From Escherichia coli (GTDB taxonomy: Bacteria; Pseudomonadota; Gammaproteobacteria; Enterobacterales; Enterobacteriaceae): a stretch of DNA of 64,000 nt. A program made the position numbers and the translations under genes. Below, piece by piece: positions 38,738-50,331 of this stretch (position 1 is its first letter; each line of letters opens with the position of its first letter). Below the pieces are notes generated by a model that saw only the letters and a list, made by a program, of their open reading frames with translations, ran no database searches and was not told the origin of the DNA. The DNA is taken from NCBI GenBank assembly GCA_902500125.1, contig GCA_902500125.1_4132.1. One strand, given 5' to 3'.

Positions 38738-38790
38738 TTTTTGTAGTATCGTAGTACTGAGATACTTTGAAAATAGTTTTAAGAAAGTAG

Positions 38791-38819: not shown

Positions 38820-38941
38820 TATTACATCAAGACGGGGAGCACTAAGTAGACCGCCAGTAAGTCGAACGAAAAACTGGACACGTCGAGAAAACTTTGATAC
38901 ACTAATAAACGTAAACTAAACTTTAATTGAGGATTTATAAA

Positions 38942-39424
38942 ATGGCTAATGTAAAATCATTCATCAAAGCACTGGTAGCAAATGAAACTAACGTCGCGGC
39001 TGAGATCCTGGCTGAACTGGATAACGATACCATGAAAGCGGTACGCAATAATTTTAACATCGCGTACAGTACTGCGAAAGAACTACAAGCAAATAAAGCG
39101 GCAGAGATTGAAGCAGCGAAGGCGGCCCGTGAAGCAGAACTACAAGCAACAATTGAAAGTATCCAGGCGGCAGTAGTTGGGCTGGATCTGGAAGTAGTTA
39201 CCGAGATGGCACAAAAAGCCCTGGCGGTTAAGTACGGGGAAGATAAGCCGGAATCTAAGCCTAAAAAATGGATTCAAGAACGTGTAGCGGTAGTACTTGA
39301 TAACGGGGAAGAATATCTGATTCCGGTGCGTGGTAACTGCATTGCGGTAGTACTGGATGCTATCAAAGAAAGCGGATTGACTCGCGAGGAATGGATCGAA
39401 GCTCATCGCAAAGTTGAAGCATAA
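38942..39424 (+). CDS. Ala/Glu-rich coiled-coil early protein (161 aa)
   Basis: RBS ATTGAGGATTTATAAAATG. Confidence 0.6.
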   Translation: MANVKSFIKALVANETNVAAEILAELDNDTMKAVRNNFNIAYSTAKELQANKAAEIEAAKAAREAELQATIESIQAAVVGLDLEVVTEMAQKALAVKYGEDKPESKPKKWIQERVAVVLDNGEEYLIPVRGNCIAVVLDAIKESGLTREEWIEAHRKVEA

Positions 39425-39445
39425 CAATTAAAGTACTGAATCATT

Positions 39446-39472
39446 AGCCCACTTATACAGTGGGCTTTTTTG
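39446..39472 (+). terminator. rho-independent terminator (AGCCCACT-TATAC-AGTGGGCT + T6)
   Basis: Hairpin followed by TTTTTTG. Confidence 0.7.
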
Positions 39473-39625
39473 TGTTTATCGTTTACCAGGCCACCAGCAC
39501 CGCCTAGAAACGATTCTAACGTATTAAACTGTTTATCTGATGCATTGCCCTAGCTGGTGGCGTTAAAGTCGTTAGAATGCGATTGAGTGCGTTTAAAGTA
39601 TTTTGCAAAAAGTAATAAAAAGTAC

Positions 39626-39685
39626 TTGCACGATTAAGAGATTAGCGTATAATGTTTTACATCGAGAGGGGGAAACGGTTCTCCT
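39626..39685 (+). promoter_or_regulatory. early cassette promoter + leader hairpin GGGGGAAACGGTTCTCC
   Basis: TTGCAC-N16-TATAAT. Confidence 0.6.
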
Positions 39686-39708
39686 TCCAAATCAAAGGAA
39701 TCAAAACA

Positions 39709-39936
39709 ATGGCTATCGTAATCGCTTATGTAACTGGTACTACTGGCACTTCTTCTACTGTTGCTGTAATTACCAACAAGAAAGGTGCGGAATTACATTC
39801 TGCAATGGATACCTGGGCGGTAAATGAGTTCGGTCAGTGGGCAAGTGTAGCATATGTTGAAACCTATCAAGTGCCAACCATTAGCTTAACGGATCTCGGT
39901 GTAGATCGTATCCTTTGCCTGGATGAATTAAATTAA
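39709..39936 (+). CDS. hypothetical early protein (75 aa)
   Basis: MAIVIAYVTGTTGTSS; RBS AAAGGAATCAAAACAATG. Confidence 0.55.
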   Translation: MAIVIAYVTGTTGTSSTVAVITNKKGAELHSAMDTWAVNEFGQWASVAYVETYQVPTISLTDLGVDRILCLDELN

Positions 39937-39944
39937 AAAAGTAC

Positions 39945-40005
39945 TTGCAAAGTAAGTTGGATAAAGTATAATACATTACATCAAGGGGAGAAAATGGTTC
40001 TCCCC
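39945..40005 (+). promoter_or_regulatory. early cassette promoter + leader hairpin GGGGAGAAAATGGTTCTCCCC
   Basis: TTGCAA-N16-TATAAT. Confidence 0.6.
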
Positions 40006-40023
40006 ACTAAGAGGAAACTAAAA

Positions 40024-40167
40024 ATGAAAACTTGTCAATGTGGTAAAAAATCTATTACTGGTTTGAAACGGGGCGTTGCTCTTTGTCAGTATCACTATAA
40101 CGCTCAGGTATGGGGTAAAGAGTGGGCCGACCAGGTGGAAGCAGTAAAGAAAGCAAAAAGTAAGTAA
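40024..40167 (+). CDS. small Cys-rich protein (47 aa, CQCG...CQYH zinc-ribbon-like)
   Basis: RBS AAGAGGAAACTAAAAATG; the antisense ORF 40018..40227 was rejected. Confidence 0.45.
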   Translation: MKTCQCGKKSITGLKRGVALCQYHYNAQVWGKEWADQVEAVKKAKSK

Positions 40168-40186
40168 AATTATTATCACAGTACTA

Positions 40187-40215
40187 TTGACATAGATTGA
40201 TAGTACTGGCATAAT
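40187..40215 (+). promoter_or_regulatory. class-2 promoter AGTACTATTGACATAGATTGATAGTACTGGCATAAT (flanking inverted AGTACTAT/ATAGTACT)
   Basis: TTGACA-N17-CATAAT; same block at 40481, 43338 and 50987. Confidence 0.55.
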
Positions 40216-40248
40216 AGATTTTATCAAGACAACTAAGAGGAAACAATA

Positions 40249-40461
40249 ATGGCTATCATCACAAAAATCAAAGTAAACAAATCACTGGTTAAGCTGGAAG
40301 AAGTGAAAGAAGGTTATAAAGTATCGTGGTGCGGCATGTATCGGATTTTTACAGATGTTGACGATGCAATCAATTACTACACTGACACGGTAAAAAACTT
40401 TGTTCGTGCTGATGTGGTTATGGCAGTGGCAACACACAAAGCATCGAAAGAAAGTAAGTAA
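40249..40461 (+). CDS. hypothetical early protein (70 aa)
   Basis: RBS CTAAGAGGAAACAATAATG. Confidence 0.6.
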   Translation: MAIITKIKVNKSLVKLEEVKEGYKVSWCGMYRIFTDVDDAINYYTDTVKNFVRADVVMAVATHKASKESK

Positions 40462-40480
40462 AAATATTATCACAGTACTA

Positions 40481-40509
40481 TTGACATAGTTTGATAGTAC
40501 TGGCATAAT
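40481..40509 (+). promoter_or_regulatory. class-2 promoter (duplicate of 40187 block)
   Basis: About 80 bp duplicated almost exactly, including the downstream RBS region. Confidence 0.55.
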
Positions 40510-40542
40510 AGATTTTATCAAGACAACTAAGAGGAAATTAAA

Positions 40543-40887
40543 ATGGCTAATATCAACACTATCGCAAAACAAAATATCAACCTGTCTTCTGTTGAAGTTG
40601 TACATATTGCCGCTCGGCGTTGGTTCCAGGCTTCATATGGTAACACTTATTTCTCTTTAAGTGTAGACGTAGAAATTGATGGTAATTTTATTGAAGTAGT
40701 AAACGTGCCGTTCCAATATGGATACGGGGATCACTTTGACACTGTAGCAATGGAAGAATTTAGCAAGGTTATTAATATGGAAGATAAAGAGTTTTTACGC
40801 GGTTCTTATCTTTCCCGTTTTTGCCGTGACAATAATATCACTGTTTACAGTTCGGTAACTGATGTTAAACGCAAAAAAGATCTTTAA
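40543..40887 (+). CDS. hypothetical early protein (114 aa); paralog of 46523..46846
   Basis: Shared NTY..S and C-terminal VKRKKD[LM]. Confidence 0.6.
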   Translation: MANINTIAKQNINLSSVEVVHIAARRWFQASYGNTYFSLSVDVEIDGNFIEVVNVPFQYGYGDHFDTVAMEEFSKVINMEDKEFLRGSYLSRFCRDNNITVYSSVTDVKRKKDL

Positions 40888-40967
40888 TTAGCTTTACTTT
40901 ATGCAGATACTTTGATATAGTGTCTGCATAGGGGAAAGAAATTAAATTAACTTAAGAGGATCGTATA

Positions 40968-41237
40968 ATGAAAAATATCAGTACTTTAATCGATGCAGGT
41001 ACACATGTTCGGCGGTCTATGGTTGCAACCAGTACTACAAAACAAGTAGCGAGCGGTTATCTTGTATTTGTGCACGATGGTAAACTCCTGGAACGTTCAA
41101 TCAATTTTGATGTTAAAAACAATTGCCGTTTTATTATCTTTCGCCGTGAACAATATAAGATCGACATTCCAGCGAAGCCCATTAGCGGTGCGTACAATGT
41201 GCAATCATTGTTTGAGCGTCAACCATACACCTATTAA
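40968..41237 (+). CDS. hypothetical protein (89 aa)
   Basis: RBS TAAGAGGATCGTATAATG. Confidence 0.55.
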   Translation: MKNISTLIDAGTHVRRSMVATSTTKQVASGYLVFVHDGKLLERSINFDVKNNCRFIIFRREQYKIDIPAKPISGAYNVQSLFERQPYTY

Positions 41238-41288
41238 TCAAAACATCGTTAGCGGTCGATTCAGGCCGCTTATATTGGGGATTATACC

Positions 41289-41561
41289 ATGAACGTTAAT
41301 CAAGTACTGAATGAGATCGAAAGCATCATTAAACCGATGAAGCGTACTGATGCTATGTTAACACCGGAAGAATGCCGCCTTTATGAGCGTTACAGCGTCG
41401 AACAAGTCCAGGCAATGGCTATGGCTACCCCAGCCGTTAAACCGCCTGAGAATGCGTTACAGGACGTTACAGGGGATTATATCATCAATCCAGTACTAGG
41501 GAAGATGGCTGCAATCACCGAAGATCAACAAGACTACTTAAGCCAGTACTTAAAAGGTTAA
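41289..41561 (+). CDS. hypothetical protein (90 aa)
   Basis: ORF track; RBS TGGGGATTATACCATG. Confidence 0.55.
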   Translation: MNVNQVLNEIESIIKPMKRTDAMLTPEECRLYERYSVEQVQAMAMATPAVKPPENALQDVTGDYIINPVLGKMAAITEDQQDYLSQYLKG

Positions 41562-41566
41562 TTAAT

Positions 41567-41776
41567 ATGCTTACTGTACAGGATAAGATCGACATCTTAA
41601 AGGTTAATATGTATGTGATTGATGCCGTACCTGGTAAAGTATTTGCATACGATGACACTACTGTAAGCGATTTCTACTATAGCCAGGCCGTGGGGGATCT
41701 TTCTGTACAGTCGGTTATTGAAAACGTAGTTAATGCAGCGTATGAGCATTTACTTTCAAATAGTACTTGCAATTAG
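41567..41776 (+). CDS. hypothetical protein (69 aa)
   Basis: ORF track; its 3' end overlaps the next promoter. Confidence 0.5.
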   Translation: MLTVQDKIDILKVNMYVIDAVPGKVFAYDDTTVSDFYYSQAVGDLSVQSVIENVVNAAYEHLLSNSTCN

Positions 41777-41826
41777 TTTTTAAACGCGTATAATGTTTTA
41801 CATGAAGGGGAGAAATGATTCTCCCC
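41767..41826 (+). promoter_or_regulatory. early cassette promoter + leader hairpin GGGGAGAAATGATTCTCCCC
   Basis: TTGCAA-N16-TATAAT. Confidence 0.6.
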
Positions 41827-41845
41827 ACTAATTAAGGAATATGAA

Positions 41846-41992
41846 ATGAAAGCATCAAAAAAGAGTAATACTAAGAAAGCACGTTCACCTTTCGCTGGGG
41901 TATTCCCTTTACGTTTCGTTGATGAAGTAGTTTCCTACCCGCCGGGCCTTACTCCTGAGATGGTAGAAAGTTTGCGTAAATCTAAAAAATAG
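41846..41992 (+). CDS. small basic protein (48 aa)
   Basis: RBS TTAAGGAATATGAAATG; below the track cutoff. Confidence 0.4.
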   Translation: MKASKKSNTKKARSPFAGVFPLRFVDEVVSYPPGLTPEMVESLRKSKK

Positions 41993-41995
41993 TAC

Positions 41996-42055
41996 TTGCA
42001 ATTAGTTTTTAGTACTGTATAATAGTTTACATGAAGGGGAGAAATGATTCTCCCC
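41996..42055 (+). promoter_or_regulatory. early cassette promoter + leader hairpin GGGGAGAAATGATTCTCCCC
   Basis: TTGCAA-N16-TGTATAAT; hairpin identical to the previous cassette. Confidence 0.6.
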
Positions 42056-42073
42056 AATAACAGGAGAAACAAA

Positions 42074-42226
42074 ATGAAACAATACAACGCTCGGTTTGAT
42101 GTTACTATCGGTAACGGCAAAGGTCAATTCTCTTTCAGTACTCGCAAAAGTTATACAGAAAACTTCCTGCGTAATTGTGCACTGACCGCCGCTCAAATTA
42201 AACATTATTTTCAGGCTAAAAAATGA
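42074..42226 (+). CDS. small hypothetical protein (50 aa)
   Basis: RBS ACAGGAGAAACAAAATG. Confidence 0.5.
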   Translation: MKQYNARFDVTIGNGKGQFSFSTRKSYTENFLRNCALTAAQIKHYFQAKK

Positions 42227-42312
42227 AATCATTAGCTTATTACAGTTCAGCGGTGATCGGTGCATTGATCGCGGCATTGTTAGTAACCTATCTATTCTTT
42301 ATGGTGATTTAA
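42223..42312 (+). CDS. 29-aa hydrophobic peptide
   Basis: ATGA-coupled; MKSLAYYSSAVIGALIAALLVTYLFFMVI. Confidence 0.3.
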   Translation: MKSLAYYSSAVIGALIAALLVTYLFFMVI

Positions 42313-42453
42313 ATGAATCCTAACGGTTTAATTTACAGTACTCCTAAAACGAAAGCAGATAAAGCGAAAGCACGTAAAGCGAAAGTAAAGGAGTACATTA
42401 AGCAAGGCATGACGCGAAAGGCCGCACTACTCAGAGTAAAGGCTGAAAAATAA
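42313..42453 (+). CDS. 46-aa basic peptide
   Basis: Starts right after the upstream stop; K/R-rich. Confidence 0.3.
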   Translation: MNPNGLIYSTPKTKADKAKARKAKVKEYIKQGMTRKAALLRVKAEK

Positions 42454-42461
42454 TTGAAAAA

Positions 42462-42492
42462 AGGGTTGACTCCGGTCAGTCCCTTTGCTATT
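42462..42492 (+). terminator. class T2 terminator/promoter element (AGGGTTGAC-TCCG-GTCAGTCCCTTTGCTATTAT)
   Basis: Hairpin followed by TTTG; TTGACT within the stem lies 17 nt from TATTAT. Confidence 0.65.
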
Positions 42493-42588
42493 ATATATAC
42501 ATACCAGCGATACACTGGCGGCCCATAGGGTGCACAAATGTATCTATTATATAAGTATTGAGTACTGAAAACTATTTTTAAAAAGTAC

Positions 42589-42647
42589 TTGCAAACTATC
42601 TCAATAAGCGTATAATGTTTTACATCGAAAGGGGAAACGGTTTCCCC
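42589..42647 (+). promoter_or_regulatory. early cassette promoter + leader hairpin GGGGAAACGGTTTCCCC
   Basis: TTGCAA-N16-TATAAT; preceded by intergenic element A. Confidence 0.6.
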
Positions 42648-42667
42648 TGGTAATAAGGAAACAAATC

Positions 42668-43009
42668 ATGACTATCTCAATTGCTCAATCTAACTTTGAA
42701 AATGAAATCATCGCCCAGGCACTGCGTTTAAATGATGGTCGGGCCGAAATTAATTACGGTTTCAATTCAGGCGGTTGTGAAAAATATCAGTACTTTGTAA
42801 CGGCTGATGGCGGTGTCCTGGGTATCAATACAGTTATTGTAAACATCCAAAAAATTAATTTCAATGATCCAGACGATAGCCAGTTTTACATCACGGGCGT
42901 AGACGTGAACTATGAGGATGACTCACTAACTGATGACTACACTGGTGAAACGTTAGAAAGTGCATACTGTGAAGATGATTATCAGTCCGGTCCAGAAGAT
43001 TTCGAATAA
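42668..43009 (+). CDS. acidic hypothetical protein (113 aa)
   Basis: RBS TAAGGAAACAAATCATG. Confidence 0.6.
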   Translation: MTISIAQSNFENEIIAQALRLNDGRAEINYGFNSGGCEKYQYFVTADGGVLGINTVIVNIQKINFNDPDDSQFYITGVDVNYEDDSLTDDYTGETLESAYCEDDYQSGPEDFE

Positions 43010-43024
43010 TATAAAAAAATAGTT

Positions 43025-43084
43025 TGACAATAGATTATAGTACTGTATAATAGTTTACATCAAGGGGAGAAAAACTTCTCCCCA
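43025..43084 (+). promoter_or_regulatory. early cassette promoter (TTGACA-N16-TGTATAAT) + hairpin GGGGAGAAAAACTTCTCCCC
   Basis: Consensus-like promoter. Confidence 0.65.
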
Positions 43085-43105
43085 CTAACAGAGAGAGAAA
43101 ACAAA

Positions 43106-43318
43106 ATGGCTAATATCTGCACTGTACTGAAAAATGCAAAACAAGTTTTATTTTCTGATCACGATCATTTAAACAAGGATATTACTGGCGTTCGGAATAT
43201 CAAAGATGTAAAAAGTGTTATGGGTATCTATTGCAATATGAAACGTGTTGGAACGTTCGGCGACAAAGTACTATACCAGGCAGGGGATTACAATTTTACA
43301 CTGACTATCATTAACTAA
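43106..43318 (+). CDS. hypothetical early protein (70 aa)
   Basis: RBS AGAGAGAGAAAACAAAATG. Confidence 0.55.
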   Translation: MANICTVLKNAKQVLFSDHDHLNKDITGVRNIKDVKSVMGIYCNMKRVGTFGDKVLYQAGDYNFTLTIIN

Positions 43319-43337
43319 AAATATATTACCAGTACTA

Positions 43338-43365
43338 TTGACATAGTTTGATAGTACTGTATAAT
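43338..43365 (+). promoter_or_regulatory. class-2 promoter (AGTACTATTGACATAGTTTGATAGTACTGTATAAT)
   Basis: TTGACA-N16-TGTATAAT. Confidence 0.55.
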
Positions 43366-43409
43366 AAGTTTTATAAACAGTAGTTAACTTAACCTAAGAG
43401 AGAAATAAA

Positions 43410-43553
43410 ATGATCGCACTGGATTCATTCATCGACGCAGTACTGGCAAAAACTGGCGAGGATCTGACCGCAGAACAATACGCGATGATCGAGCAATGTC
43501 AGCAAGACGGTAAATCGGTGAAAGATACTGTTAAGATTATCCGCAAGATGTAA
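43410..43553 (+). CDS. small acidic protein (47 aa)
   Basis: RBS TAAGAGAGAAATAAAATG; below the track cutoff. Confidence 0.4.
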   Translation: MIALDSFIDAVLAKTGEDLTAEQYAMIEQCQQDGKSVKDTVKIIRKM

Positions 43554-43560
43554 TATTATA

Positions 43561-43590
43561 GCCCACTGGTCAACGCTGGTGGGCTTTAAT
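43561..43590 (+). terminator. terminator-like hairpin AGCCCACTGG-TCAACG-CTGGTGGGCT
   Basis: 10-bp stem; weak T-tract (TTTAATCC). Confidence 0.45.
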
Positions 43591-43652
43591 CCTTTACCCT
43601 ATACAATGCCAGTACTAAACCGTTTATCTCGTTAGAATGCGTTACAGGACGT

Positions 43653-43856
43653 TTGACAATGATTAGCATGAAATCAGTACAAAAACAAATAGAAACATTA
43701 TCAAAAATTAAACGTAAACAGTACTCGTTAGAATATACAATCAATGGTAACTATCATCTAATGAAAGAGAATAATTTTATTGTCATTGATGAATCATTGC
43801 AAATCATTAGTATAGTACTGAAAGCATTAATCAATGACAGAAAAAAATTAAAATAA
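43653..43856 (+). CDS. hypothetical protein (67 aa)
   Basis: ORF track; weak RBS; AT-rich. Confidence 0.35.
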   Translation: MTMISMKSVQKQIETLSKIKRKQYSLEYTINGNYHLMKENNFIVIDESLQIISIVLKALINDRKKLK

Positions 43857-43860
43857 TCTA

Positions 43861-43889
43861 TTGACAATATCATCCAGTACTGGCATAAT
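43861..43889 (+). promoter_or_regulatory. promoter TTGACA-N17-CATAAT with ~295-nt leader
   Basis: TTGACAATATCATCCAGTACTGGCATAAT; the leader holds element A and a cluster of GATCAA/TGATCA motifs. Confidence 0.55.
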
Positions 43890-44185
43890 ACTTACATCAA
43901 GACGAGAACGTCACTAACCCATAGGGTGCACAAATGTAACTATATAATATCGATCAATAAATGATCAAAAAAGTACTGGATCAATTTAACATAAGGAGTA
44001 TAATTCTGATCAATTCTTGATCAAAGGCAATATACGCAGTTGAATTTATATAGACATTACAAAGGCGTTACTATCCGTGGTAATGCTGGTGGATATGTAG
44101 TATCATATGGTTTGAATAAGATTAGCACTAGTAGTATTATTGTAGCATTACAGTACTATAGTATTTTTATAATGAGGTTAAAATA

Positions 44186-44443
44186 ATGGCAGTAGGATAC
44201 GCGAAAGACGGGGCCGAACAAGACGAGATTCACGCAGTGATTCAGGCCGCCGTTAACCACGCTAGAAAGCAAATTAACGCACAAAGAGAATCACTGGTAC
44301 ATTGCCTCGACTGCGGCGATAAAATCCCTGAGAATCGACGCCAGGCCGTTATAGGGTGCATGTATTGTATTACTTGCCAGGAGGATCATGATAGTACTTT
44401 TAAAAGAGATCCGCGTAATTGTTGGCATAGATCTATGAGATAA
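44186..44443 (+). CDS. DksA/TraR-family C4 zinc-finger protein
   Basis: HCLDCGDKIPENRRQAVIGCMYCITCQ (C-x2-C...C-x2-C with a P-x-x-RR motif); RBS TGAGGTTAAAATAATG. Confidence 0.75.
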   Translation: MAVGYAKDGAEQDEIHAVIQAAVNHARKQINAQRESLVHCLDCGDKIPENRRQAVIGCMYCITCQEDHDSTFKRDPRNCWHRSMR

Positions 44444-44450
44444 AAAGTAA

Positions 44451-44478
44451 TTGACAGTACTGAAAGATAGTGTATAAT
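44451..44478 (+). promoter_or_regulatory. promoter TTGACA-N16-TGTATAAT
   Basis: TTGACAGTACTGAAAGATAGTGTATAATG. Confidence 0.6.
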
Positions 44479-44507
44479 GTTTTATATCTTAACTGAGGAT
44501 AGTAATC

Positions 44508-44864
44508 ATGGGAATACAACATATCACGCGTACTACTGACAATGGAGAGATCACTGGTTATCAGGTACAGGGCAAAGTAGCACAATTGCAGTACTGGTTT
44601 GTTAAACGTGGAATCATTGCACCGGATCTTGATTATGACCGTGTAGCGTTTATTGATTCTCTTTATGTTGATCCTGATAGTCGGGGCAATGGTGAAGGTA
44701 ACGAATTAATGAATGCCTTTATCGATGCCGCCGATGATTCAGATTGTATCATCTTAGAATGCGATACGGGAGAAGATAACGCCTTTAATCTTAAAGAATG
44801 GTACGAAGGTTTCGGATTCGAGGTATTGATAGATAGTGAATATCCTATCATGATTTTATCATAG
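44508..44864 (+). CDS. small GNAT-family acetyltransferase-like protein (118 aa)
   Basis: VDPDSRGNGEGNELMNAF (acetyl-CoA motif A-like R/Q-x-x-G-x-G) and ...KEWYEGFGFE; RBS TGAGGATAGTAATCATG. Confidence 0.5.
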   Translation: MGIQHITRTTDNGEITGYQVQGKVAQLQYWFVKRGIIAPDLDYDRVAFIDSLYVDPDSRGNGEGNELMNAFIDAADDSDCIILECDTGEDNAFNLKEWYEGFGFEVLIDSEYPIMILS

Positions 44865-44867
44865 TAC

Positions 44868-44924
44868 TTGCATTTAGTTTTCAGTACTGTTATAGTACTT
44901 GCATCAAGGGGAAACATCTTCCCC
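44868..44924 (+). promoter_or_regulatory. early cassette promoter (TTGCAT...TATAGT) + hairpin GGGGAAACATCTTCCCC
   Basis: -10 non-consensus. Confidence 0.45.
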
Positions 44925-44942
44925 TACTAAGAGGAAATAAAA

Positions 44943-45131
44943 ATGGAAAACTTATCAAGTATTTTAGTACAAGATGATTTCGGTAATCCTGGAAGTGCTA
45001 TCATTGTTCGGGGCAATAAAGCAACGTTTGTTATTGCTGGTGGACCCGTACAGCGTAGCATTAAAAATAATGCTGTTACCATTAATAATGTACGCTATCG
45101 CTTAGATAAAGAATTAATTCATAAACTGTAA
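44943..45131 (+). CDS. hypothetical early protein (62 aa)
   Basis: RBS TAAGAGGAAATAAAAATG. Confidence 0.55.
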   Translation: MENLSSILVQDDFGNPGSAIIVRGNKATFVIAGGPVQRSIKNNAVTINNVRYRLDKELIHKL

Positions 45132-45138
45132 AAAAGTA

Positions 45139-45200
45139 CTGGATAATAGATTATAGTACTGTATAATAGTTTACATGAAGGGGAGAAATGATTCTCCCCA
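45139..45200 (+). promoter_or_regulatory. early cassette promoter (weak -35, TGTATAAT) + hairpin GGGGAGAAATGATTCTCCCC
   Basis: Extended -10; third occurrence of this hairpin sequence. Confidence 0.5.
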
Positions 45201-45216
45201 CTAAGAGGAAAGAAAA

Positions 45217-45429
45217 ATGCAAGGTCAACTAATCGTTCGTAAATGGTCTGATACTAACGAAAAACCGTGGGATGTACAATACATCGCCCCCAATGGTGAA
45301 TCCAGATATCAACCAGGTGTAACGCATAGTACTGAGCAATTCGCCGCCGCTCATCGCGAACGTCTGTTACAATCAATGCAGCAAGGTTTCGGTGAAAAAT
45401 TCATTCAGGATCATTGGCTGAAAGATTAA
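45217..45429 (+). CDS. hypothetical early protein (70 aa)
   Basis: RBS TAAGAGGAAAGAAAAATG. Confidence 0.55.
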   Translation: MQGQLIVRKWSDTNEKPWDVQYIAPNGESRYQPGVTHSTEQFAAAHRERLLQSMQQGFGEKFIQDHWLKD

Positions 45430-45436
45430 AAAGTAC

Positions 45437-45494
45437 TTGCACTGTACTGAATAAAGTGTATAATGTTTTATATCGGAAGGGGAATAGTTCCCCT
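45437..45494 (+). promoter_or_regulatory. early cassette promoter + hairpin GGGGAATAGTTCCCC
   Basis: TTGCAC-N16-TGTATAAT. Confidence 0.6.
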
Positions 45495-45515
45495 CCTAAC
45501 AAAGAGGAAAGTATA

Positions 45516-45689
45516 ATGGTCCAGGTAGAATTAACAGTACTGAAAGATCTGTTTTATCGGATTGGTACTACTGGCGAATATCCGAAGGGTGATAATGCAA
45601 AACTTTACGTATCACTCGACTTATGGCAACGCGAACAATTAGCAACGGCCTGGCGTAAAGGCAAAGCAGATAGCGAGGTGAAAGCATGA
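45516..45689 (+). CDS. small hypothetical protein (57 aa)
   Basis: RBS AAAGAGGAAAGTATAATG after the hairpin. Confidence 0.5.
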   Translation: MVQVELTVLKDLFYRIGTTGEYPKGDNAKLYVSLDLWQREQLATAWRKGKADSEVKA

Positions 45690-45835
45690 AAGAATTCTTA
45701 TTTGAAGTAGTGTTTCAAGGTGTCGGTAGTAACCAACTGATTCGCTCAAGTGGTTATAATGTTAACCAGGCATGGAATAACATTAAACAAATGTACCCGA
45801 ACGCTATCACCTATCGCAACCCGAAAGAAGTTTAA
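45686..45835 (+). CDS. small hypothetical protein (49 aa)
   Basis: ATGA-coupled ORF MKEFLFEVVFQG...; below the track cutoff. Confidence 0.35.
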   Translation: MKEFLFEVVFQGVGSNQLIRSSGYNVNQAWNNIKQMYPNAITYRNPKEV

Positions 45836-45848
45836 AAATAATTGAAAA

Positions 45849-45880
45849 AGGGATTGACTCCGGTCAGTCCCTTTGCTATT
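45849..45880 (+). terminator. class T2 terminator/promoter element
   Basis: AAAAAGGGATTGACTCCGGTCAGTCCCTTTGCTATTATATACGCATAG. Confidence 0.65.
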
Positions 45881-45982
45881 ATATACGCATAGAAACAAAT
45901 TAGCCCACCGGGTGCATAAATGTATCTATTGTTTGCTGGTGGCTAGTACTATCAAGTACTGAAAACTATTTTTAAAAAGTAC

Positions 45983-46010
45983 TTGCATTGTAATTAGAAT
46001 CAAGTATAAT
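45983..46010 (+). promoter_or_regulatory. early promoter (TTGCAT-N16-TATAAT), upstream of tandem pair
   Basis: Part of a ~170-bp block duplicated from 35823-35990. Confidence 0.6.
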
Positions 46011-46020
46011 GTTTTACATC

Positions 46021-46100
46021 AGGACGGGGAACGAAACAAGTAACCCCGTTAAGTAGTCCAGGAGTAAGACATACGAAAAACTCCCCTGATAAAATAGTTT
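46021..46100 (+). ncRNA. structured leader/candidate small RNA (copy 2)
   Basis: Copy of 35881-35960 with stem-compatible substitutions (ACGGGGAACGAAACAAGTAACCCCGTT). Confidence 0.35.
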
Positions 46101-46126
46101 GACAATAGAAAGTAAACGAGTATAAT
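46099..46126 (+). promoter_or_regulatory. promoter TTGACA-N16-TATAAT (downstream of pair)
   Basis: TTGACAATAGAAAGTAAACGAGTATAATAC. Confidence 0.6.
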
Positions 46127-46159
46127 ACTTACATCAACCACTGATAAGGAAACATTAAA

Positions 46160-46435
46160 ATGCGGATTCTACTGACAGCTAACGAAATCGAACAAGTACT
46201 GACTACTAACCTGGAACAATGGAAACGTGATGCAGATATCCAGGCGGTTCAATGGCTTAACGATAAGTTAACGCCGGATGACTTAAGCAAGATTGTAGAT
46301 CCTCAATTCTACGAAGATATTCACGACACGGCTTTAAGCGTCGAGGATGTACTTGATAAGCATTACATTAATACCGATTTACAGGTTTACGGGCGTAAAA
46401 ACTTTATCACTATTCACGACATTTACAATACTTAA
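46160..46435 (+). CDS. hypothetical early protein (91 aa)
   Basis: RBS TAAGGAAACATTAAAATG. Confidence 0.6.
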   Translation: MRILLTANEIEQVLTTNLEQWKRDADIQAVQWLNDKLTPDDLSKIVDPQFYEDIHDTALSVEDVLDKHYINTDLQVYGRKNFITIHDIYNT

Positions 46436-46438
46436 GTA

Positions 46439-46497
46439 TTGACAAAGTATCTTAGTACTGTATAATAGTTTACATCAAGGCGGGGAAATGGTTCCCC
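46439..46497 (+). promoter_or_regulatory. early cassette promoter (TTGACA-N16-TGTATAAT) + hairpin CGGGGAAATGGTTCCCCT
   Basis: Consensus promoter. Confidence 0.65.
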
Positions 46498-46522
46498 TCC
46501 TAACAAAGAGAGAGAAATAAAA

Positions 46523-46846
46523 ATGGCTATGATCCTTACCCAGAAAGTGGAATTGAAAATTGTAACCTCCTTTGACATTAAAGTTAATCGCTGGACTGAT
46601 CGGAACGGCAATACTTACCACTCTTGCTACGTGTCTGCGTTAATTGGCGACCGCTGGGAAGACCTGGGACACGAAACCTTTACATACGGTTACGGTACGC
46701 AAGGCGAATACACTGGTTTGGAGATCATTAAAGAAACCGTTATAGGTTTCAACCCGAAAGAAAAAGTTATGCACCGCATCGAAAAAGAGATTAACAAAGA
46801 AATAACAGTTCGCTACTACGATGTAAAACGTAAGAAAGACATGTAA
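46523..46846 (+). CDS. hypothetical early protein (107 aa); paralog of 40543
   Basis: RBS AGAGAGAGAAATAAAAATG. Confidence 0.6.
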   Translation: MAMILTQKVELKIVTSFDIKVNRWTDRNGNTYHSCYVSALIGDRWEDLGHETFTYGYGTQGEYTGLEIIKETVIGFNPKEKVMHRIEKEINKEITVRYYDVKRKKDM

Positions 46847-46868
46847 TAGAATCCATTTAAAGTACTAT

Positions 46869-46897
46869 TTGACATTGCCCAGATAGTACTTTATAAT
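46869..46897 (+). promoter_or_regulatory. promoter TTGACA-N17-TATAAT
   Basis: TTGACATTGCCCAGATAGTACTTTATAAT. Confidence 0.6.
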
Positions 46898-46941
46898 AGA
46901 CTCTAACTTGTAGTACTAACTCAACTAATAGGATGTATACC

Positions 46942-47337
46942 ATGATTACTAAATTCTACGCTACCCGTGAAGCTGCCCGTATTGTTGCACGCGAGGAAGG
47001 AGCAGCATTTAAAGACATGGGAACGACAGCACCGAAAGGTCAACGCTGGGCCGTACAGTTCAAAGAAATCTCTGATATTGTGAATTCACCTGAGCCAGTA
47101 CTAACAGCAGCAGAACTAAAACGAGCGGATATGCTGGCGGCAATACTTGACGCACAAGATGAGTTTATCGCTGATTCTGATATCAAAGTACAGGTAAACC
47201 ACACCGCATGGACTCACGCGGATCACCTGGCAAACCTTAAGCGTCCAAGTGAACTGATTCGCAACCAGAAAGAGATCCGACATGATCGTAAGGGTAATCG
47301 TGTAACAGTATACAGTAAACGCCGCCAGGTTATCTAA
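46942..47337 (+). CDS. hypothetical protein (~131 aa); paralog of 35010
   Basis: MITKFYATREAARIVAREEGAAFKDMG...DRKGNRVTVY; RBS TAGGATGTATACCATG. Confidence 0.55.
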   Translation: MITKFYATREAARIVAREEGAAFKDMGTTAPKGQRWAVQFKEISDIVNSPEPVLTAAELKRADMLAAILDAQDEFIADSDIKVQVNHTAWTHADHLANLKRPSELIRNQKEIRHDRKGNRVTVYSKRRQVI

Positions 47338-47359
47338 TAACTTGCAGTACTAACAACAC

Positions 47360-47385
47360 GGCGGGATCAGTTCCCGCCTTTTTTA
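47360..47385 (+). terminator. rho-independent terminator (GGCGGGA-TCAG-TTCCCGCC + T6)
   Basis: Hairpin followed by TTTTTTA. Confidence 0.7.
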
Positions 47386-47398
47386 TAGGACAAACAAA

Positions 47399-47653
47399 AT
47401 GATTAAGGTTCAACTATATAAAGATAACATCTTACGGGTACACTATAAAGCACCGAAGAGAATCATCACAAAGGCCGTACAGCTTGCTAATGAGTTTATT
47501 AATGGTAACCTATTACCAAGGAAGTTAAGCAACGGGAAACTGCGTGTAATCGACGTGGACACTAACAACAGGATAGTAATCGAGAACACAGGAAAAATAA
47601 ACCTTTATGAGCATCAACAATACAATAAGAAAATAAAACTAATATCACGTTGA
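47399..47653 (+). CDS. hypothetical protein (84 aa)
   Basis: RBS ATAGGACAAACAAAATG. Confidence 0.55.
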   Translation: MIKVQLYKDNILRVHYKAPKRIITKAVQLANEFINGNLLPRKLSNGKLRVIDVDTNNRIVIENTGKINLYEHQQYNKKIKLISR

Positions 47654-47679
47654 CAGTACTCAAATGTTTTAGTATTATG
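47650..47679 (+). promoter_or_regulatory. promoter TTGACA-N18-TATTAT (duplicated block, copy 1)
   Basis: TTGACAGTACTCAAATGTTTTAGTATTATG. Confidence 0.5.
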
Positions 47680-47706
47680 TACACATACCAACACGGGAGA
47701 AACAAA

Positions 47707-47925
47707 ATGAAATTATCTAAAATCGAAAAGAAAACTATTGATGAAGCAGTTAAGCACGGTTATACCTTTCGTAATGATTCACATTTTACCAATTTTCAAC
47801 AGGGGTATCGTACTATTAAAAAACTAATTGACAAAGGTTTATTAGTTGAAGTCAATAATGGGAACGGTATCGAGTATCAGCCAACCCAAGACGCATTATC
47901 TTTAAAGAAATATAATATTATCTAA
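47707..47925 (+). CDS. hypothetical protein (72 aa)
   Basis: RBS ACGGGAGAAACAAAATG. Confidence 0.55.
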   Translation: MKLSKIEKKTIDEAVKHGYTFRNDSHFTNFQQGYRTIKKLIDKGLLVEVNNGNGIEYQPTQDALSLKKYNII

Positions 47926-47953
47926 TTGACAGTACTCAAATGTTTTAGTACTA
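47926..47953 (+). promoter_or_regulatory. promoter (duplicated block, copy 2)
   Basis: TTGACAGTACTCAAATGTTTTAGTACTAT. Confidence 0.45.
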
Positions 47954-47983
47954 TATGTACATACCAACACGGGGAAAAACAAA

Positions 47984-48226
47984 ATGATTACTTTAGAAAA
48001 ACGTATCAAAGAAACTACATCGCTGGTGGAATTGTTAACAGTACTCAAATGTAAAACAACACCATTCAGCACGCCGGACTTTATTAATATGGTTGATGTT
48101 AATGGTCGCTATCGTATCACGGTCGAACAAGGAGCGGCGAAAGTATTCAGTACTAAAAACACGAAGGAAGTGATCCACGCCGTTAATGTTAAAAAAGTAG
48201 TTGCCATTGATAGTAAAGTACTGTAA
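47984..48226 (+). CDS. hypothetical protein (80 aa)
   Basis: RBS ACGGGGAAAAACAAAATG. Confidence 0.55.
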   Translation: MITLEKRIKETTSLVELLTVLKCKTTPFSTPDFINMVDVNGRYRITVEQGAAKVFSTKNTKEVIHAVNVKKVVAIDSKVL

Positions 48227-48257
48227 TATAGTTTCATTAACTCAAGGAGAACATGCA

Positions 48258-48842
48258 ATGCGTAATTATACTAAATTCATCCGTACACTGTCAGAAATGG
48301 AAACCAACAAAGAGATCCTTTCAGCTTGTCGGTTAGCTGGCCTGGAGATCATCGGTGCTGGTTCTTCCCGTATAGTTTTCGCTTTAAATGATCGGTTAGT
48401 GATTAAGGTCGCGAATTGTGATGCGGGTGTAGAACAAAATGAAACTGAATGTAAGGTATGGAATTTTTTAGACTATGACCGCCCTCAGTTGAAACAGTAC
48501 TTTGCAAAGGTGCATATGCATTTATGCGATCCTGATAATATGTTTATCGTTATGGATCGGTTGAGTACTGCAAGCAAAGGTAGTGTGAAGCACGTAAACG
48601 CGTGCAATGAATTAAAGTACAATATTAAACGTAATGCAATCGAACGCCAGCACCGCTTTGCTGATGCACTACAACACGTCGATGATACATTATCAACACT
48701 AACGATAAGAGATATCAGAAAACAGAATATCGGCCAGGATCGTAATGGCCTTATTAAAGTACTTGATTACGGTTTAACCTGCAATATCTGGAATCAGTAC
48801 TATAAAAAGCGTGATGTGGCAGCAAGTAAGGTAACACGATAA
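48258..48842 (+). CDS. small protein-kinase-like protein (~194 aa)
   Basis: RBS AAGGAGAACATGCAATG; IIGAGSSRIVF (G-loop), VIKVA, IRDIRKQNIG (catalytic-loop-like), KVLDYG (DFG-like). Confidence 0.6.
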   Translation: MRNYTKFIRTLSEMETNKEILSACRLAGLEIIGAGSSRIVFALNDRLVIKVANCDAGVEQNETECKVWNFLDYDRPQLKQYFAKVHMHLCDPDNMFIVMDRLSTASKGSVKHVNACNELKYNIKRNAIERQHRFADALQHVDDTLSTLTIRDIRKQNIGQDRNGLIKVLDYGLTCNIWNQYYKKRDVAASKVTR

Positions 48843-48855
48843 AAAAGATTAAAAA

Positions 48856-48890
48856 AGGGATTGACTCCGGTCAGTCCCTTTGCTATTATA
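48856..48890 (+). terminator. class T2 terminator/promoter element
   Basis: AAAAAAGGGATTGACTCCGGTCAGTCCCTTTGCTATTATATA. Confidence 0.65.
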
Positions 48891-48983
48891 TATCCATTGA
48901 GAGATAACTCACTGACCCATAGGGTGCGGAAGTGTATCTATTATATAAGTATTCAGTACTGAAAACTATTTTTTAAAAAGTAC

Positions 48984-49046
48984 TTGCATTGTACTTAGAA
49001 TCAAGTATAATGTTTTATATCGAGAGGGGGAAATGGTTCTCCCTGG
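48984..49046 (+). promoter_or_regulatory. early cassette promoter + hairpin GGGGGAAATGGTTCTCCC
   Basis: TTGCAT-N16-TATAAT; preceded by element A. Confidence 0.6.
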
Positions 49047-49065
49047 TATATTAAGGAATAAAATC

Positions 49066-49287
49066 ATGACTACAATGACTTGCATTTACGCTTCCAATCG
49101 TCTGAATGATGCGGCCTTTAATGTTGATTCAGAATATCAATGTTATCGGGATGAAAATAAAAAAGTTTTTGTAGTTGATAATAATGGTTTCCATATTGAA
49201 TTACAATCCGGCTTCACTGGTGTTGATGGTAAATCAGTATGGGGCGTACAGGATGATAAAGGTACATATCATTTTAAACGTAATTAA
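49066..49287 (+). CDS. hypothetical early protein (73 aa)
   Basis: RBS TTAAGGAATAAAATCATG. Confidence 0.55.
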   Translation: MTTMTCIYASNRLNDAAFNVDSEYQCYRDENKKVFVVDNNGFHIELQSGFTGVDGKSVWGVQDDKGTYHFKRN

Positions 49288-49291
49288 GTAT

Positions 49292-49353
49292 TTGACAAAG
49301 TATCTTAGTACTGTATAATAGTTTACATCAAGGGGAGAATAGTTCTCCCCGAT
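49292..49353 (+). promoter_or_regulatory. early cassette promoter (TTGACA-N16-TGTATAAT) + hairpin GGGGAGAATAGTTCTCCCC
   Basis: Consensus promoter. Confidence 0.65.
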
Positions 49354-49371
49354 ACTAAAAGGAATAAAATC

Positions 49372-49776
49372 ATGACTACTACTAATCTTGCTCGGAATAT
49401 CGCCAACGATAAAAATCATGCTGCAATGGTCGCTGGTTACATTGAAGCTATGCAATTCAGTACTGTACATAATGATAACGGCGATTACCTGGAAGATTAT
49501 GAGTTATCTGATGAAGCACGTCAAGCGGCGGTGATTGCATGTTCTCGCTTCATTGAGAAACACGGTAATGATCTGGAAGTAGTTCGCGGTATGTTTATTG
49601 ATTACGGTTATGAGCAAGCTGGTCATGATCTGTTCCTTACCCGCGAAGGTCACGGAACTGGTTTTTGGGATCGTGGTTTAGGTCACTATGGCGATGTATT
49701 CACGAAGTACTGCGAAGAAATCAACGTTTGCGATCCCTATGTAGGCGATGATAACTTAATCTATATGGGCGAATAA
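49372..49776 (+). CDS. hypothetical early protein (134 aa)
   Basis: RBS AAAAGGAATAAAATCATG. Confidence 0.6.
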   Translation: MTTTNLARNIANDKNHAAMVAGYIEAMQFSTVHNDNGDYLEDYELSDEARQAAVIACSRFIEKHGNDLEVVRGMFIDYGYEQAGHDLFLTREGHGTGFWDRGLGHYGDVFTKYCEEINVCDPYVGDDNLIYMGE

Positions 49777-49782
49777 AAGTAT

Positions 49783-49843
49783 TTGACAAAGTATATCAGT
49801 ACTGTATAATAGTTTACATCAAGGGGAGAATAGTTCTCCCCAA
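49783..49843 (+). promoter_or_regulatory. early cassette promoter (TTGACA-N16-TGTATAAT) + hairpin GGGGAGAATAGTTCTCCCC
   Basis: Near-duplicate of the 49292 cassette. Confidence 0.65.
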
Positions 49844-49863
49844 TACTAAAAGGAAACAAAATT

Positions 49864-50324: not shown

Positions 50325-50331
50325 AAAGTAC

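Follow-up and report, generated by a model that had tools for sequence, protein, structure and literature searches.

The window analysed here, a stretch of DNA of 64,000 nucleotides, contains two short neighbouring genes that a sequence-only reading had assigned to a TraR/DksA-like zinc-finger protein and a mini-GNAT acetyltransferase. If these assignments are right, the locus raises the question of what the two proteins do to the host and whether they do it together. Both ORFs are present as described, 64 bp apart (Table 1). Our preferred answer, given with moderate confidence, is that each is an accessory gene of an Asteriusvirus, independent of the other, with its own sigma-70 promoter and probably expressed early, the TraR-like protein being directed at RNA polymerase and the GNAT at a host protein. 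The annotation of both genes is correct but routine, as GenBank already lists identical proteins under these names.

Table 1. Features of the locus and its surroundings, in window coordinates
Feature	Position	Strand	Basis or remark
Equivalent of the ~21 kb direct terminal repeat (DTR) of Asteriusvirus genomes	32398..53090	+	blastn
Sigma-70-like promoter, TTGACA-17-CATAAT, 11/12 positions	43861..43889	+	promoter scan
Five GATCAA (GATC/Dam) sites, clustered in the leader upstream of ORF 44040	43952..44024	.	
ORF 44040, 48 aa, TTG start	44040..44186	+	ORF list; stop overlaps the TraR-like start codon (TAATG)
TraR/DksA-family C4 zinc-finger protein, YbiI-like clade, 85 aa	44186..44443	+	Pfam, PHROG, PDB, fold search
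Perfect sigma-70 promoter, TTGACA-16-TATAAT, AT-rich discriminator (GTTTTATA)	44451..44478	+	promoter scan; directly upstream of the GNAT gene
Minimal GNAT acetyltransferase, 118 aa	44508..44864	+	Pfam, AlphaFold2, Foldseek

Phage identity and the terminal repeat

The source of the window is an Asteriusvirus, a 121Q-like jumbo phage of E. coli. Its top match is Escherichia phage WPEC5 (97.5% over 3.5 kb), and 84 Asteriusvirus-type records match the window. The near relatives are all phages of E. coli, Salmonella or Shigella, which agrees with the Gram-negative host that had been surmised from the zinc finger. A DTR of 20,993 bp has been confirmed by restriction digests (PMC13070987). When bases 1-22500 of phage fEgEco12 were compared with the window by blastn, the left physical terminus of that genome aligned at the start of the repeat-equivalent stretch; the annotation of vB_Ec-M-J gives a DTR at 1-21525 that spans both the TraR-like and GNAT genes. 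The two genes thus lie about 12 kb into the repeat of about 21 kb, and the GNAT gene is present in two copies in records of 366-384 kb and in one copy in records of 347-361 kb. Their surroundings in the repeat are an array of many unrelated small ORFs on the plus strand.

Phage T5 carries its pre-early genes, a small host-takeover gene array, in a long direct terminal repeat under strong host-type promoters. The Asteriusvirus repeat array, with its small genes, long direct repeat and host-type promoters, presumably resembles this arrangement. We know of no two-step DNA injection, as seen in T5, for the Asteriusviruses.

Promoters, leader and expression

A promoter scan of the window found 13 perfect TTGACA-N16/17-TATAAT sites, all on the plus strand, where 0.05 would be expected. 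Eleven of these fall within the repeat-equivalent stretch, and the discriminators of these eleven are AT-rich (12-38% GC). One of the perfect promoters occupies the spacer between the TraR-like and GNAT genes. The sigma-70-like promoter farther upstream is likely to drive a two-gene unit composed of ORF 44040 and the TraR-like gene; three Asteriusviruses agree fully in its hexamers, in an AGTACTG element and in the downstream leader, and differ in part of its spacer. The consensus sigma-70 promoters and the position in the terminal repeat are consistent with early expression, and on these two grounds we regard early expression of both genes as plausible. The literature on a T4-like Yersinia phage that carries a TraR-like homologue yielded no usable transcriptome data.

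ORF 44040 is probably a genuine gene whose translation is coupled to that of the TraR-like gene. Many of the differences in its relatives are synonymous third-position changes, Salmonella phage SD-15_S21 encodes a similar but diverged protein, and the annotation of 121Q lists the ORF as gp293. Family matches were sought in NCBIfam and PADLOC, and none was found. Conservation of the ORF is within the Asteriusviruses, and the idea that it is a partner kept upstream of TraR-like genes in general was rejected, since the ORF that overlaps at this position in T4-like phage CUA3 (60 aa) is unrelated to it.

Apart from the GATCAA cluster in the leader, no part of the 64 kb window reaches four GATC per 100 bp, and GATC is under-represented in the rest of the window. 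Phages 121Q and vB_Ec-M-J carry the cluster unchanged, and SD-15_S21 retains four GATC in a diverged arrangement. The cluster could couple expression of the TraR-like operon to the Dam-methylation state of the entering phage DNA. Rfam searches, at gathering thresholds and at E up to 1, detected no structured RNA in the long leader or in the whole window.

A TraR/DksA-family protein of the YbiI-like clade

The earlier assignments depended on support from homology searches, and such searches back both of them, with scores well outside the range of chance. The zinc-finger protein matches Pfam PF01258 (zf-dskA_traR; 3.7e-9, 36.9 bits against a cutoff of 24.9), which makes it a member of the superfamily, and PHROG 54, "DksA-like zinc-finger protein" (8e-19). 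Matches to PDB sequences include YbiI (2kgo; 2.4e-11 over residues 1-69) and TraR in its RNA polymerase complexes (6n57/5w1s; 5e-6). Alignment with TraR by hhalign gave a probability of 98.6%, and the top Foldseek matches are YbiI, TraR, Chlamydia DksA and E. coli DksA. The best-scoring NCBIfam model is the YbiI family (NF008243 / PRK11019, "DksA/TraR family C4-type zinc finger protein", an equivalog), at 78.6 bits and below its cutoff of 96; TIGR02419 (49.1, cutoff 59.7) and TraR (PRK13715; 31.6, cutoff 108) also score below cutoff. In PADLOC the zinc finger gave one partial match only (0.0017).

The zinc-finger signature read from the sequence is present as C40-L-D-C43, P48-E-N-R51-R52 and C61-I-T-C64-Q65, with the spacing CxxC-x17-CxxC. 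All 47 homologues compared keep the zinc ligands C40, C43, C61 and C64, and also I47, P48, R51, R52, G57 and Q65. A second zinc site formed by extra cysteines was considered and rejected, C58 and H68 not being conserved; C79 and H81 are invariant in the phage clade only. A Gre-like DxxExA tip was also rejected, since Q-D and not x-A comes after D8-x-x-E11, and the bacterial clade has Val in place of E11.

YbiI is the best solved relative. The two proteins are of similar length (85 aa in the phage, 88 aa in YbiI) and have in common the N-terminal motif MAxG[FWY]A(K/N)D(G/D)A, the zinc ribbon CxxC-x17-CxxCQ and IPxxRR. They differ in the loop before the zinc ribbon, which is one residue longer in the phage protein, and in the tail, which is FKRxPRNCWHRSMR in the phage protein and GYNRRGSKDSQLR in the other; moreover, the phage protein is encoded by lytic phages whereas YbiI is encoded by a bacterial chromosome. 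The N-terminal motif of the window protein is MAVGYAKDGAEQ and its C-terminal tail FKRDPRNCWHRSMR. Phage YbiI-like proteins, from Asteriusviruses and T4-like phages alike, share the invariant N-terminus MAVGFAKDGAEQ and the invariant tail PRNCWHRSMR, and the tail of the bacterial clade is equally conserved. A tail that is invariant among the phages but unlike the conserved bacterial one suggests clade-specific partners.

F TraR and lambda Orf73, of the phage and plasmid family whose members bind in the RNA polymerase secondary channel, resemble the window protein in being small, in combining an N-terminal helix with a C4 zinc ribbon and a C-terminal segment, and in being carried by a proteobacterial mobile element or phage that depends on the host RNA polymerase. 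Identity is about 26%. We compared the protein with the features of functional TraR, namely a DxxDxA tip, an Arg-Arg pair and a C-terminal helix at residues 58-73 (PMC9239242). Functional members of that family also bind RNA polymerase, regulate promoters of rRNA and r-protein genes and complement a dksA-null strain. The Arg-Arg pair is present, R51/R52 aligning with TraR R48/R49, which contact the beta-prime rim helices and Si3 (PMC9239242). The strict tip is absent: the phage sequence reads Y5-A-K-D8-G-A10, with D-x-A alone kept, and the consensus of its family is G-[FWY]-A-K-D-G-A. The N-terminal segment is 3 residues longer than in TraR, and D8 is shifted by one residue relative to TraR D6 in the ungapped register (offset +3), a register that is itself ambiguous by one residue. 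The C-terminal helix, which in TraR comprises 16 residues and contacts beta Si1, is predicted to comprise about 7 in the phage protein (residues 62-68) and is followed by a low-confidence tail (mean pLDDT 64 at residues 71-80 and 51 at residues 81-85).

These differences could be taken to indicate that the protein is of YbiI type and does not control RNA polymerase by way of the secondary channel, its conserved N-terminus MAxGFAKDGA and its tail PRNCWHRSMR acting elsewhere. We consider this rather unlikely, although with an appreciable chance of being right. In its favour, the nearest relative is YbiI and not TraR, the protein has no strict tip, only a short C-terminal helix and a disordered tail, and the Cys/His/Arg-rich phage tail departs from the bacterial one. 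Certain other C4 zinc-finger proteins of the TraR/DksA superfamily do not behave like DksA, and YbiI has no established function, a tie to iron metabolism having been favoured by the authors who studied it (PMC2613031). Against this, the Arg-Arg pair that contacts the polymerase is invariant together with P48, G57 and Q65, and the N-terminal helix is of fitting length, with one invariant Asp followed by x-Ala. Furthermore, overexpression of YbiI is reported to relieve dksA auxotrophy (PMC2613031, data not shown there), and all 5 phage TraR homologues tested bind RNA polymerase, including those with an imperfect DxxDxA, which are still active, though weaker (PMC9239242). Because the phage protein is closer to YbiI than to TraR and has neither the strict tip nor the long C-terminal helix, it is likely, though not certain, that it acts on RNA polymerase as TraR does.

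A minimal GNAT acetyltransferase

The second protein is a member of the GNAT superfamily, with matches above cutoff to Pfam Acetyltransf_1 (4.1e-9, 37.2 bits against 20.7), Acetyltransf_7 (33.5 against 27) and Acetyltransf_10 (26.3 against 23.6). The motif from which it had been recognized is present as R59-G-N-G-E-G-N-E-L-M68, and the P-loop R59-G-N-G62-E-G64 fits the consensus Q/R-x-x-G-x-G/A (PMC4964394) that binds the acetyl-CoA pyrophosphate before alpha3. The AlphaFold2 model (pLDDT 93, pTM 0.86) has the core fold beta4-alpha3-beta5-alpha4-beta6, with beta4 predicted at residues 45-54, alpha3 at 63-74, beta5 at 80-84, beta6 at 105-108 and beta7 at 114-117. The full N-terminal arm beta1-alpha1-alpha2-beta2-beta3 is replaced in the model by one hairpin (residues 3-21) and one helix (25-33). 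The segment ahead of beta4 has only 41 residues, and the canonical Pfam profiles match the C-terminal half of the protein only, from profile position 53 on. The label "mini-GNAT" is therefore apt, given the reduced arm and the partial profile match; AcrVA5 and YjdJ are precedents for truncated GNATs of this kind.

Residues R59, G62, G64, D86, E89, W98 and Y99 are invariant or nearly so in 36 family members. D86 and E89 belong to a family loop, D86-T-G-E89-D-N, and alpha4 carries W98-Y99-E100. Y99 lies in WYEGFGF and is matched in alignment by the tyrosine of the puromycin N-acetyltransferase sequence "FYERLGF"; we take it to correspond to the general-acid tyrosine of RimI. The family, which is unnamed, is one of 117-140-aa enzymes, with about 290 cluster representatives. 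It was found by exhaustive HMMER search; a word-index protein search gave only 2, and later 9, relatives. Some relatives are domains of large proteins that also contain PARP and ParB_N domains or an amidoligase domain. Injected phage polyvalent proteins that carry ART and GNAT domains have been described by Iyer et al., and in our reading the multidomain relatives appear to resemble them.

Among small proteins, the nearest in structure is AcrVA5 (PDB 6iuf, 92 aa), a protein-lysine acetyltransferase and minimal GNAT from a mobile element that acetylates Cas12a. The likeness is structural only (Foldseek TM-score 0.75, normalised to the target); identity is 16-22%, the window GNAT is 26 residues longer, and AcrVA5 was absent from PDB sequence and profile searches made with the window protein. 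AcrVA5-type membership would entail sequence homology and a Cas12a-bearing host, and the host here is E. coli; since E. coli lacks Cas12a, the target of AcrVA5 cannot be the target of the window GNAT. The similarity between the two proteins may simply reflect their common small size, and the structural neighbours as a whole include enzymes that act on small molecules as well as on proteins. AcrVA5 as closest small neighbour, together with the missing arm, nevertheless points to a host protein as the most likely acceptor.

A more specific proposal is that the GNAT is an AcrVA5-like anti-defence enzyme that acetylates a key lysine of an immune effector, or else that it acts on a small molecule or an aminoacyl-tRNA. 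We regard this as doubtful, though far from negligible. AcrVA5 is reported to inactivate Cas12a through acetylation (10.1101/2021.11.16.468554), and the fusion of GNAT relatives to PARP and ParB_N recalls the ART and GNAT domains of the injected polyvalent proteins. The gene is moreover accessory and patchy, as counter-defence genes often are, and GNAT toxins (7byy, 6ajm) and aminoglycoside/streptothricin acetyltransferases are among the matches. Conversely, identity to AcrVA5 is low and the best-scoring neighbours are merely the smallest GNATs, searches of PADLOC and of defence-related families gave no match to the GNAT, and no target can be identified. The proposal also overlaps our preferred interpretation, the acceptor being a host protein in both.

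Adjacency of the two genes

The adjacency that the sequence-only reading noted is a property of the genus. The two genes adjoin in every Asteriusvirus that has both, and the pairing is restricted to Asteriusvirus. The GNAT occurs in 25 phage records and the TraR-like protein in 954. Salmonella Asteriusvirus SD-15_S21 has the TraR-like gene and lacks the GNAT, and T4-like phages whose TraR-like proteins are 62-72% identical have no such GNAT. None of 14 non-Asteriusvirus loci with GNAT homologues has a TraR-like ORF within about 5 kb. A pairing limited to one genus, with one Asteriusvirus that carries the TraR-like gene but not the GNAT, gives no evidence of joint work, and the adjacency carries no detectable functional meaning. 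Functional coupling was rejected on these absences and on the separate promoters.

A phage GNAT that acts on RNA polymerase is known. [quoted passage not shown] Rac belongs to a different host and phage type, however, and the phages that encode it own an RNA polymerase, whereas Asteriusviruses are reported to encode an RNA polymerase sigma factor; as we read them, the functional annotations quoted in the Asteriusvirus papers mention no phage RNA polymerase. It is very improbable that the two window genes are a functional pair, with the TraR-like protein docked in the secondary channel and the GNAT acetylating a polymerase subunit in the manner of Rac, since the constant adjacency within the genus, the precedent of Rac and the survey predictions are set against the perfect promoter between the genes, the phages and loci that have one gene without the other, and a neighbourhood of many unrelated small ORFs.

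Proposed roles and implications

We therefore return to two independent accessory genes as the preferred interpretation. Family membership, fold, the conserved cofactor and zinc ligands, the promoters, the place in the repeat and the absence of conserved linkage are shown by the analysis, and binding to RNA polymerase, the direction of regulation, early timing and the acetylation target are inferred. Each gene would have a promoter of its own, read by the host sigma-70 RNA polymerase, probably at an early stage of infection. The TraR-like protein would most likely bind the host RNA polymerase directly, its N-terminal helix entering the secondary channel and its Arg-Arg pair sitting on the beta-prime rim helices and Si3. 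As to the direction of regulation, the phage consensus promoters, with their AT-rich discriminators, would be spared by the protein. The GNAT would be a catalytically competent though minimal enzyme that moves the acetyl group from acetyl-CoA; it lacks the alpha1-alpha2 arm with which ordinary GNATs close the acceptor site. The acceptor would most likely be a host protein, either a component of transcription or translation or a defence protein.

A bolder combination of ideas, which we consider improbable when taken jointly, is that the phage YbiI-like proteins form a separate effector class, that the mini-GNATs are an undescribed family of AcrVA5-like inhibitors, and that the GATC cluster provides Dam-linked control. 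In such a class the single-Asp tip and the Cys/His/Arg tail could give an output unlike that of TraR, on the polymerase channel or on some other target, and the mini-GNATs could inactivate a host protein through acetylation of a single lysine.

If our preferred interpretation of the TraR-like protein is true, large lytic phages that depend on the host RNA polymerase would use the ppGpp-independent trick of lambda Orf73 to divert transcription, and this trick would extend to the Asteriusviruses and to several T4-like genera with closely similar proteins. The YbiI-type tip would then show how much of DxxDxA is dispensable. Members of the mini-GNAT family, for their part, could be single-enzyme inactivators of host or defence functions, like AcrVA5.

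Family assignment of the two genes

The sequence-only reading had proposed a DksA/TraR C4 zinc-finger gene at 44186 and, next to it, a gene carrying GNAT motif A. Both motifs are present as it quoted them (C40-x2-C43, P48-x-x-R51-R52 and C61-x2-C64-Q65 in the TraR-like protein; R59-GNGEGNELM-68 in the GNAT protein), and homology searches, which could have spoken against either label, back both. The zinc-finger protein scores 36.9 bits against a Pfam zf-dskA_traR threshold of 24.9 (E 3.7e-9) and is a "DksA-like zinc-finger protein" in PHROGs (8e-19). The GNAT protein exceeds the Pfam thresholds of three GNAT models (Acetyltransf_1, 37.2 bits vs 20.7) and is a PHROGs "acetyltransferase" (9e-10). 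At these profile scores, chance resemblance is excluded for both predicted assignments.

BLAST matched the 3.5 kb surrounding the two genes, at 90-97.5% identity, to Escherichia phages in the genus Asteriusvirus (121Q and PBECO4-like jumbo phages of 347-386 kb). Some Asteriusvirus records hold both protein sequences in identical form, and existing annotation names the first gene "DksA-like zinc-finger protein" or "C-4 type zinc finger protein" and the second "GNAT family N-acetyltransferase". Neither gene is discussed in the Asteriusvirus literature examined. Both are uncharacterised members of two known kinds, under labels already in public records.

Terminal repeat, promoters and operon

Base 1 of phage fEgEco12, an experimentally supported left terminus, aligns at 32398. 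The direct terminal repeat of that phage is 20,993 bp long (PMC13070987), and the repeat-equivalent stretch of the window therefore runs from 32398 to ~53090. The fEgEco12 counterparts of the two genes, g030 and g031, lie ~11.5-12.2 kb from the end; in vB_Ec-M-J both genes are inside the annotated repeat, and records holding both repeat copies contain the GNAT gene twice. Both boundaries of the stretch fall within the window, so the source record is either permuted or has its repeat collapsed. There is no annotated gene in the first ~1.7 kb past the fEgEco12 terminus. Just before the repeat-equivalent stretch lies the only sizeable minus-strand coding region of the window, a block at 18562-27816 of seven or eight large ORFs (245-411 aa).

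The two genes sit in an array of small plus-strand genes. The window contains 13 perfect TTGACA-N16/17-TATAAT sites, every one of them on the plus strand, where shuffled sequence would be expected to give 0.05. Of the 13, eleven are inside the repeat-equivalent stretch and have AT-rich discriminators; in most of the 13, AGTACTG abuts the -10 hexamer. Hairpins of the 5' UTR ("ACATCAAGGGGAGA...TCTCCCC") often follow downstream of this cassette, and its repetition is probably why BLAST reported 4-12 matching "places" per phage record. These promoters, together with the repeat position, fit early transcription of both genes by the host polymerase; the earlier description of them as early genes stands to that extent, and their timing we infer from these features.

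Features of the region around the TraR-like and GNAT genes
Feature	Position	Strand	Remarks
TraR-like ORF	44186..44443	+	85 aa; ORF list
GNAT ORF	44508..44864	+	118 aa; ORF list
Repeated promoter cassette	1509-51336 (13 sites, e.g. 43024, 43338, 44451, 46099, 46439)	+	16-bp spacer, 17 bp in one
Perfect promoter	44451-44478	+	between the two genes; serves GNAT
Near-consensus promoter	43861-43889	+	upstream of the ORF 44040 and TraR-like pair
GATCAA (Dam/GATC) cluster	43952-44024		five sites in 73 bp; between promoter-like 43861-43889 and ORF 44040
ORF 44040	44040-44186	+	48 aa; TTG start; no obvious Shine-Dalgarno

Through an overlap of its ATG with the stop codon of ORF 44040 (TAATG), the TraR-like gene is predicted to be coupled to that ORF, unlike the GNAT gene with its own promoter. 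ORF 44040 appears to be a real gene, because its relatives show many synonymous third-position changes and Salmonella phage SD-15_S21 encodes a diverged but similar protein. Its last ~55 bp are invariant in DNA among the relatives compared, and NCBIfam and PADLOC searches gave no family match for its protein. In a T4-like phage, the corresponding overlapping position is occupied by an unrelated ORF of 60 aa.

The GATC cluster in the leader of this operon stands alone: nowhere else in the 64 kb does the density reach four GATC per 100 bp, and GATC is under-represented window-wide (138 vs about 209 expected). It includes two site pairs at 11 bp spacing and is invariant in 121Q and vB_Ec-M-J; SD-15_S21 keeps four GATC in a diverged arrangement. 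The cluster may place the TraR-like operon under methylation-sensitive or SeqA-type control. This conserved cluster and the repeated promoter cassette are the only mildly unusual by-products of the analysis.

The zinc-finger protein

The closest solved relative of the TraR-like protein is E. coli YbiI (2kgo; E 2.4e-11, residues 1 to 69 aligned), followed by RNA polymerase-bound F-plasmid TraR (6n57, 5w1s; E about 5e-6). Among NCBIfam models the YbiI family scores best, ahead of the phage/plasmid TraR subfamily and, in third place, TraR itself; all three scores fall short of the curated cutoffs. A profile of 47 homologues aligned to TraR with 98.6% probability. AlphaFold predicts, with moderate confidence (pLDDT 71), a helix spanning residues 7-28, then the zinc ribbon, a second, short helix (62-68) and an ill-defined tail; a fold search with this model gave meaningful matches only to YbiI, TraR and DksA proteins.

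The homologues fall into three clades: Asteriusvirus proteins (88-96% identity), proteins of T4-like phages (Citrobacter phage Moon, Escherichia phage RZ, Yersinia phages MHG19 and fHe-Yen9-01; 62-72%), and 88-aa YbiI-type proteins from bacteria (43-57%), which have a different conserved tail, GYNRRGSKDSQLR. The first two share an invariant tail, FKRxPRNCWHRSMR. All three have the four cysteines, Q65, I47-P48, R51-R52 and G57 invariant, and a near-invariant N-terminus, M-A-x-G-[FWY]-A-K-D-G-A-x-Q. The protein is a member of the YbiI-like branch, which is the less understood one, and its tip motif is incomplete.

Work from the Gourse laboratory defines functional TraR homologues by a DxxDxA motif at the N-terminal helix tip, which reaches the active site; by R48 and R49, which touch the rim helices and beta-prime Si3; and by the C-terminal helix 58-73, which touches beta Si1 (PMC9239242). 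The Arg-Arg pair is present in the TraR-like protein. Its tip, Y5-A-K-D8-G-A10, departs from strict DxxDxA, having a single acidic residue followed by x-Ala and an aromatic in place of the first Asp; the register of D8 with TraR D6 hinges on the placement of one extra residue in the profile alignment. The C-terminal helix is short in the AlphaFold model.

A TraR-like function is favoured by the homologues P2 Orf82 and X. bovienii Gp34, which with imperfect tips keep weaker polymerase binding and dksA complementation (PMC9239242), and by the rescue of dksA auxotrophy reported, with data not shown, for overexpressed YbiI (PMC2613031). It is also favoured by an apparent dependence on the host polymerase: a sigma factor is reported for Asteriusviruses and a phage RNA polymerase goes unmentioned in the papers examined (including PMC13070987), and we therefore take these phages to use the host enzyme. 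Against it, other C4 proteins of the superfamily do not behave like DksA, and YbiI, the closest solved relative, is itself an uncharacterised protein. We consider the odds slightly in favour of TraR-like binding of the secondary channel by the 85-aa protein.

The mini-GNAT

A word-indexed search with the GNAT protein found almost no relatives outside the genus; when 1.84 billion cluster representatives were scanned exhaustively with HMMER, 290 relatives emerged, 44 of them below 1e-10. The majority are stand-alone proteins (117-140 aa) matched over their full length, and some form a C-terminal or internal domain within large multidomain proteins. Among P0064, P0116, P0076 and P0111, the domain is combined with PARP-like and ParB_N domains (436 aa), with Amidoligase_2 (984 aa) or with DUF5661 (262 aa), or is part of a 2284-aa protein. 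These large architectures resemble the polyvalent proteins of phages and conjugative elements; GNAT and ADP-ribosyltransferase domains were noted earlier in polyvalent phage proteins (Iyer et al.).

The family alignment conserves G17-Y18, R59, G62, G64, D86, E89, F93, L95, W98-Y99, F104, P113 and M115, and an AlphaFold model built with it is confident (pLDDT 93, pTM 0.86). The model comprises a hairpin (3-21), a helix (25-33), beta4 (45-54), alpha3 (63-74), beta5 (80-84) and alpha4 (95-100), then beta6 and beta7. Since the core elements beta4-beta7 are all there, the modelled acetyl-CoA-binding core is complete, including the P-loop R-x-x-G-x-G (consensus, PMC4964394) and the alpha4 tyrosine. 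The beta1-alpha1-alpha2 arm, the usual shaper of the acceptor pocket, is absent, which accounts for the Pfam profile matches starting only at position 53. From the open acceptor site and the structural neighbours of the model, the substrate is most likely a protein.

Adjacency and possible roles

The two genes are adjacent on the plus strand, as first described. In the locus of SD-15_S21, itself a Salmonella Asteriusvirus (L019, 1501-2028), ORF 44040 and the TraR-like gene both have counterparts, the GNAT gene is missing, and a homologue of window ORF 44943-45131 follows the TraR-like gene directly. T4-like phages have neighbours of the TraR-like gene that differ from those in Asteriusvirus, no TraR-like ORF was present within about 5 kb of the GNAT relative at any of 14 non-Asteriusvirus loci, and tblastn matched the TraR-like protein in 954 phage records vs 25, nearly all Asteriusvirus, for GNAT. 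On these grounds a meaningful pairing was rejected; there is no evidence that the two genes are linked.

It is reasonable to extrapolate the proposed roles in host transcription and host acetylation from relatives that have been characterised, namely TraR and lambda Orf73 in the case of the zinc finger and Rac and AcrVA5 in that of the GNAT. A TraR-like factor would inhibit rRNA promoters while sparing phage promoters with AT-rich discriminators.
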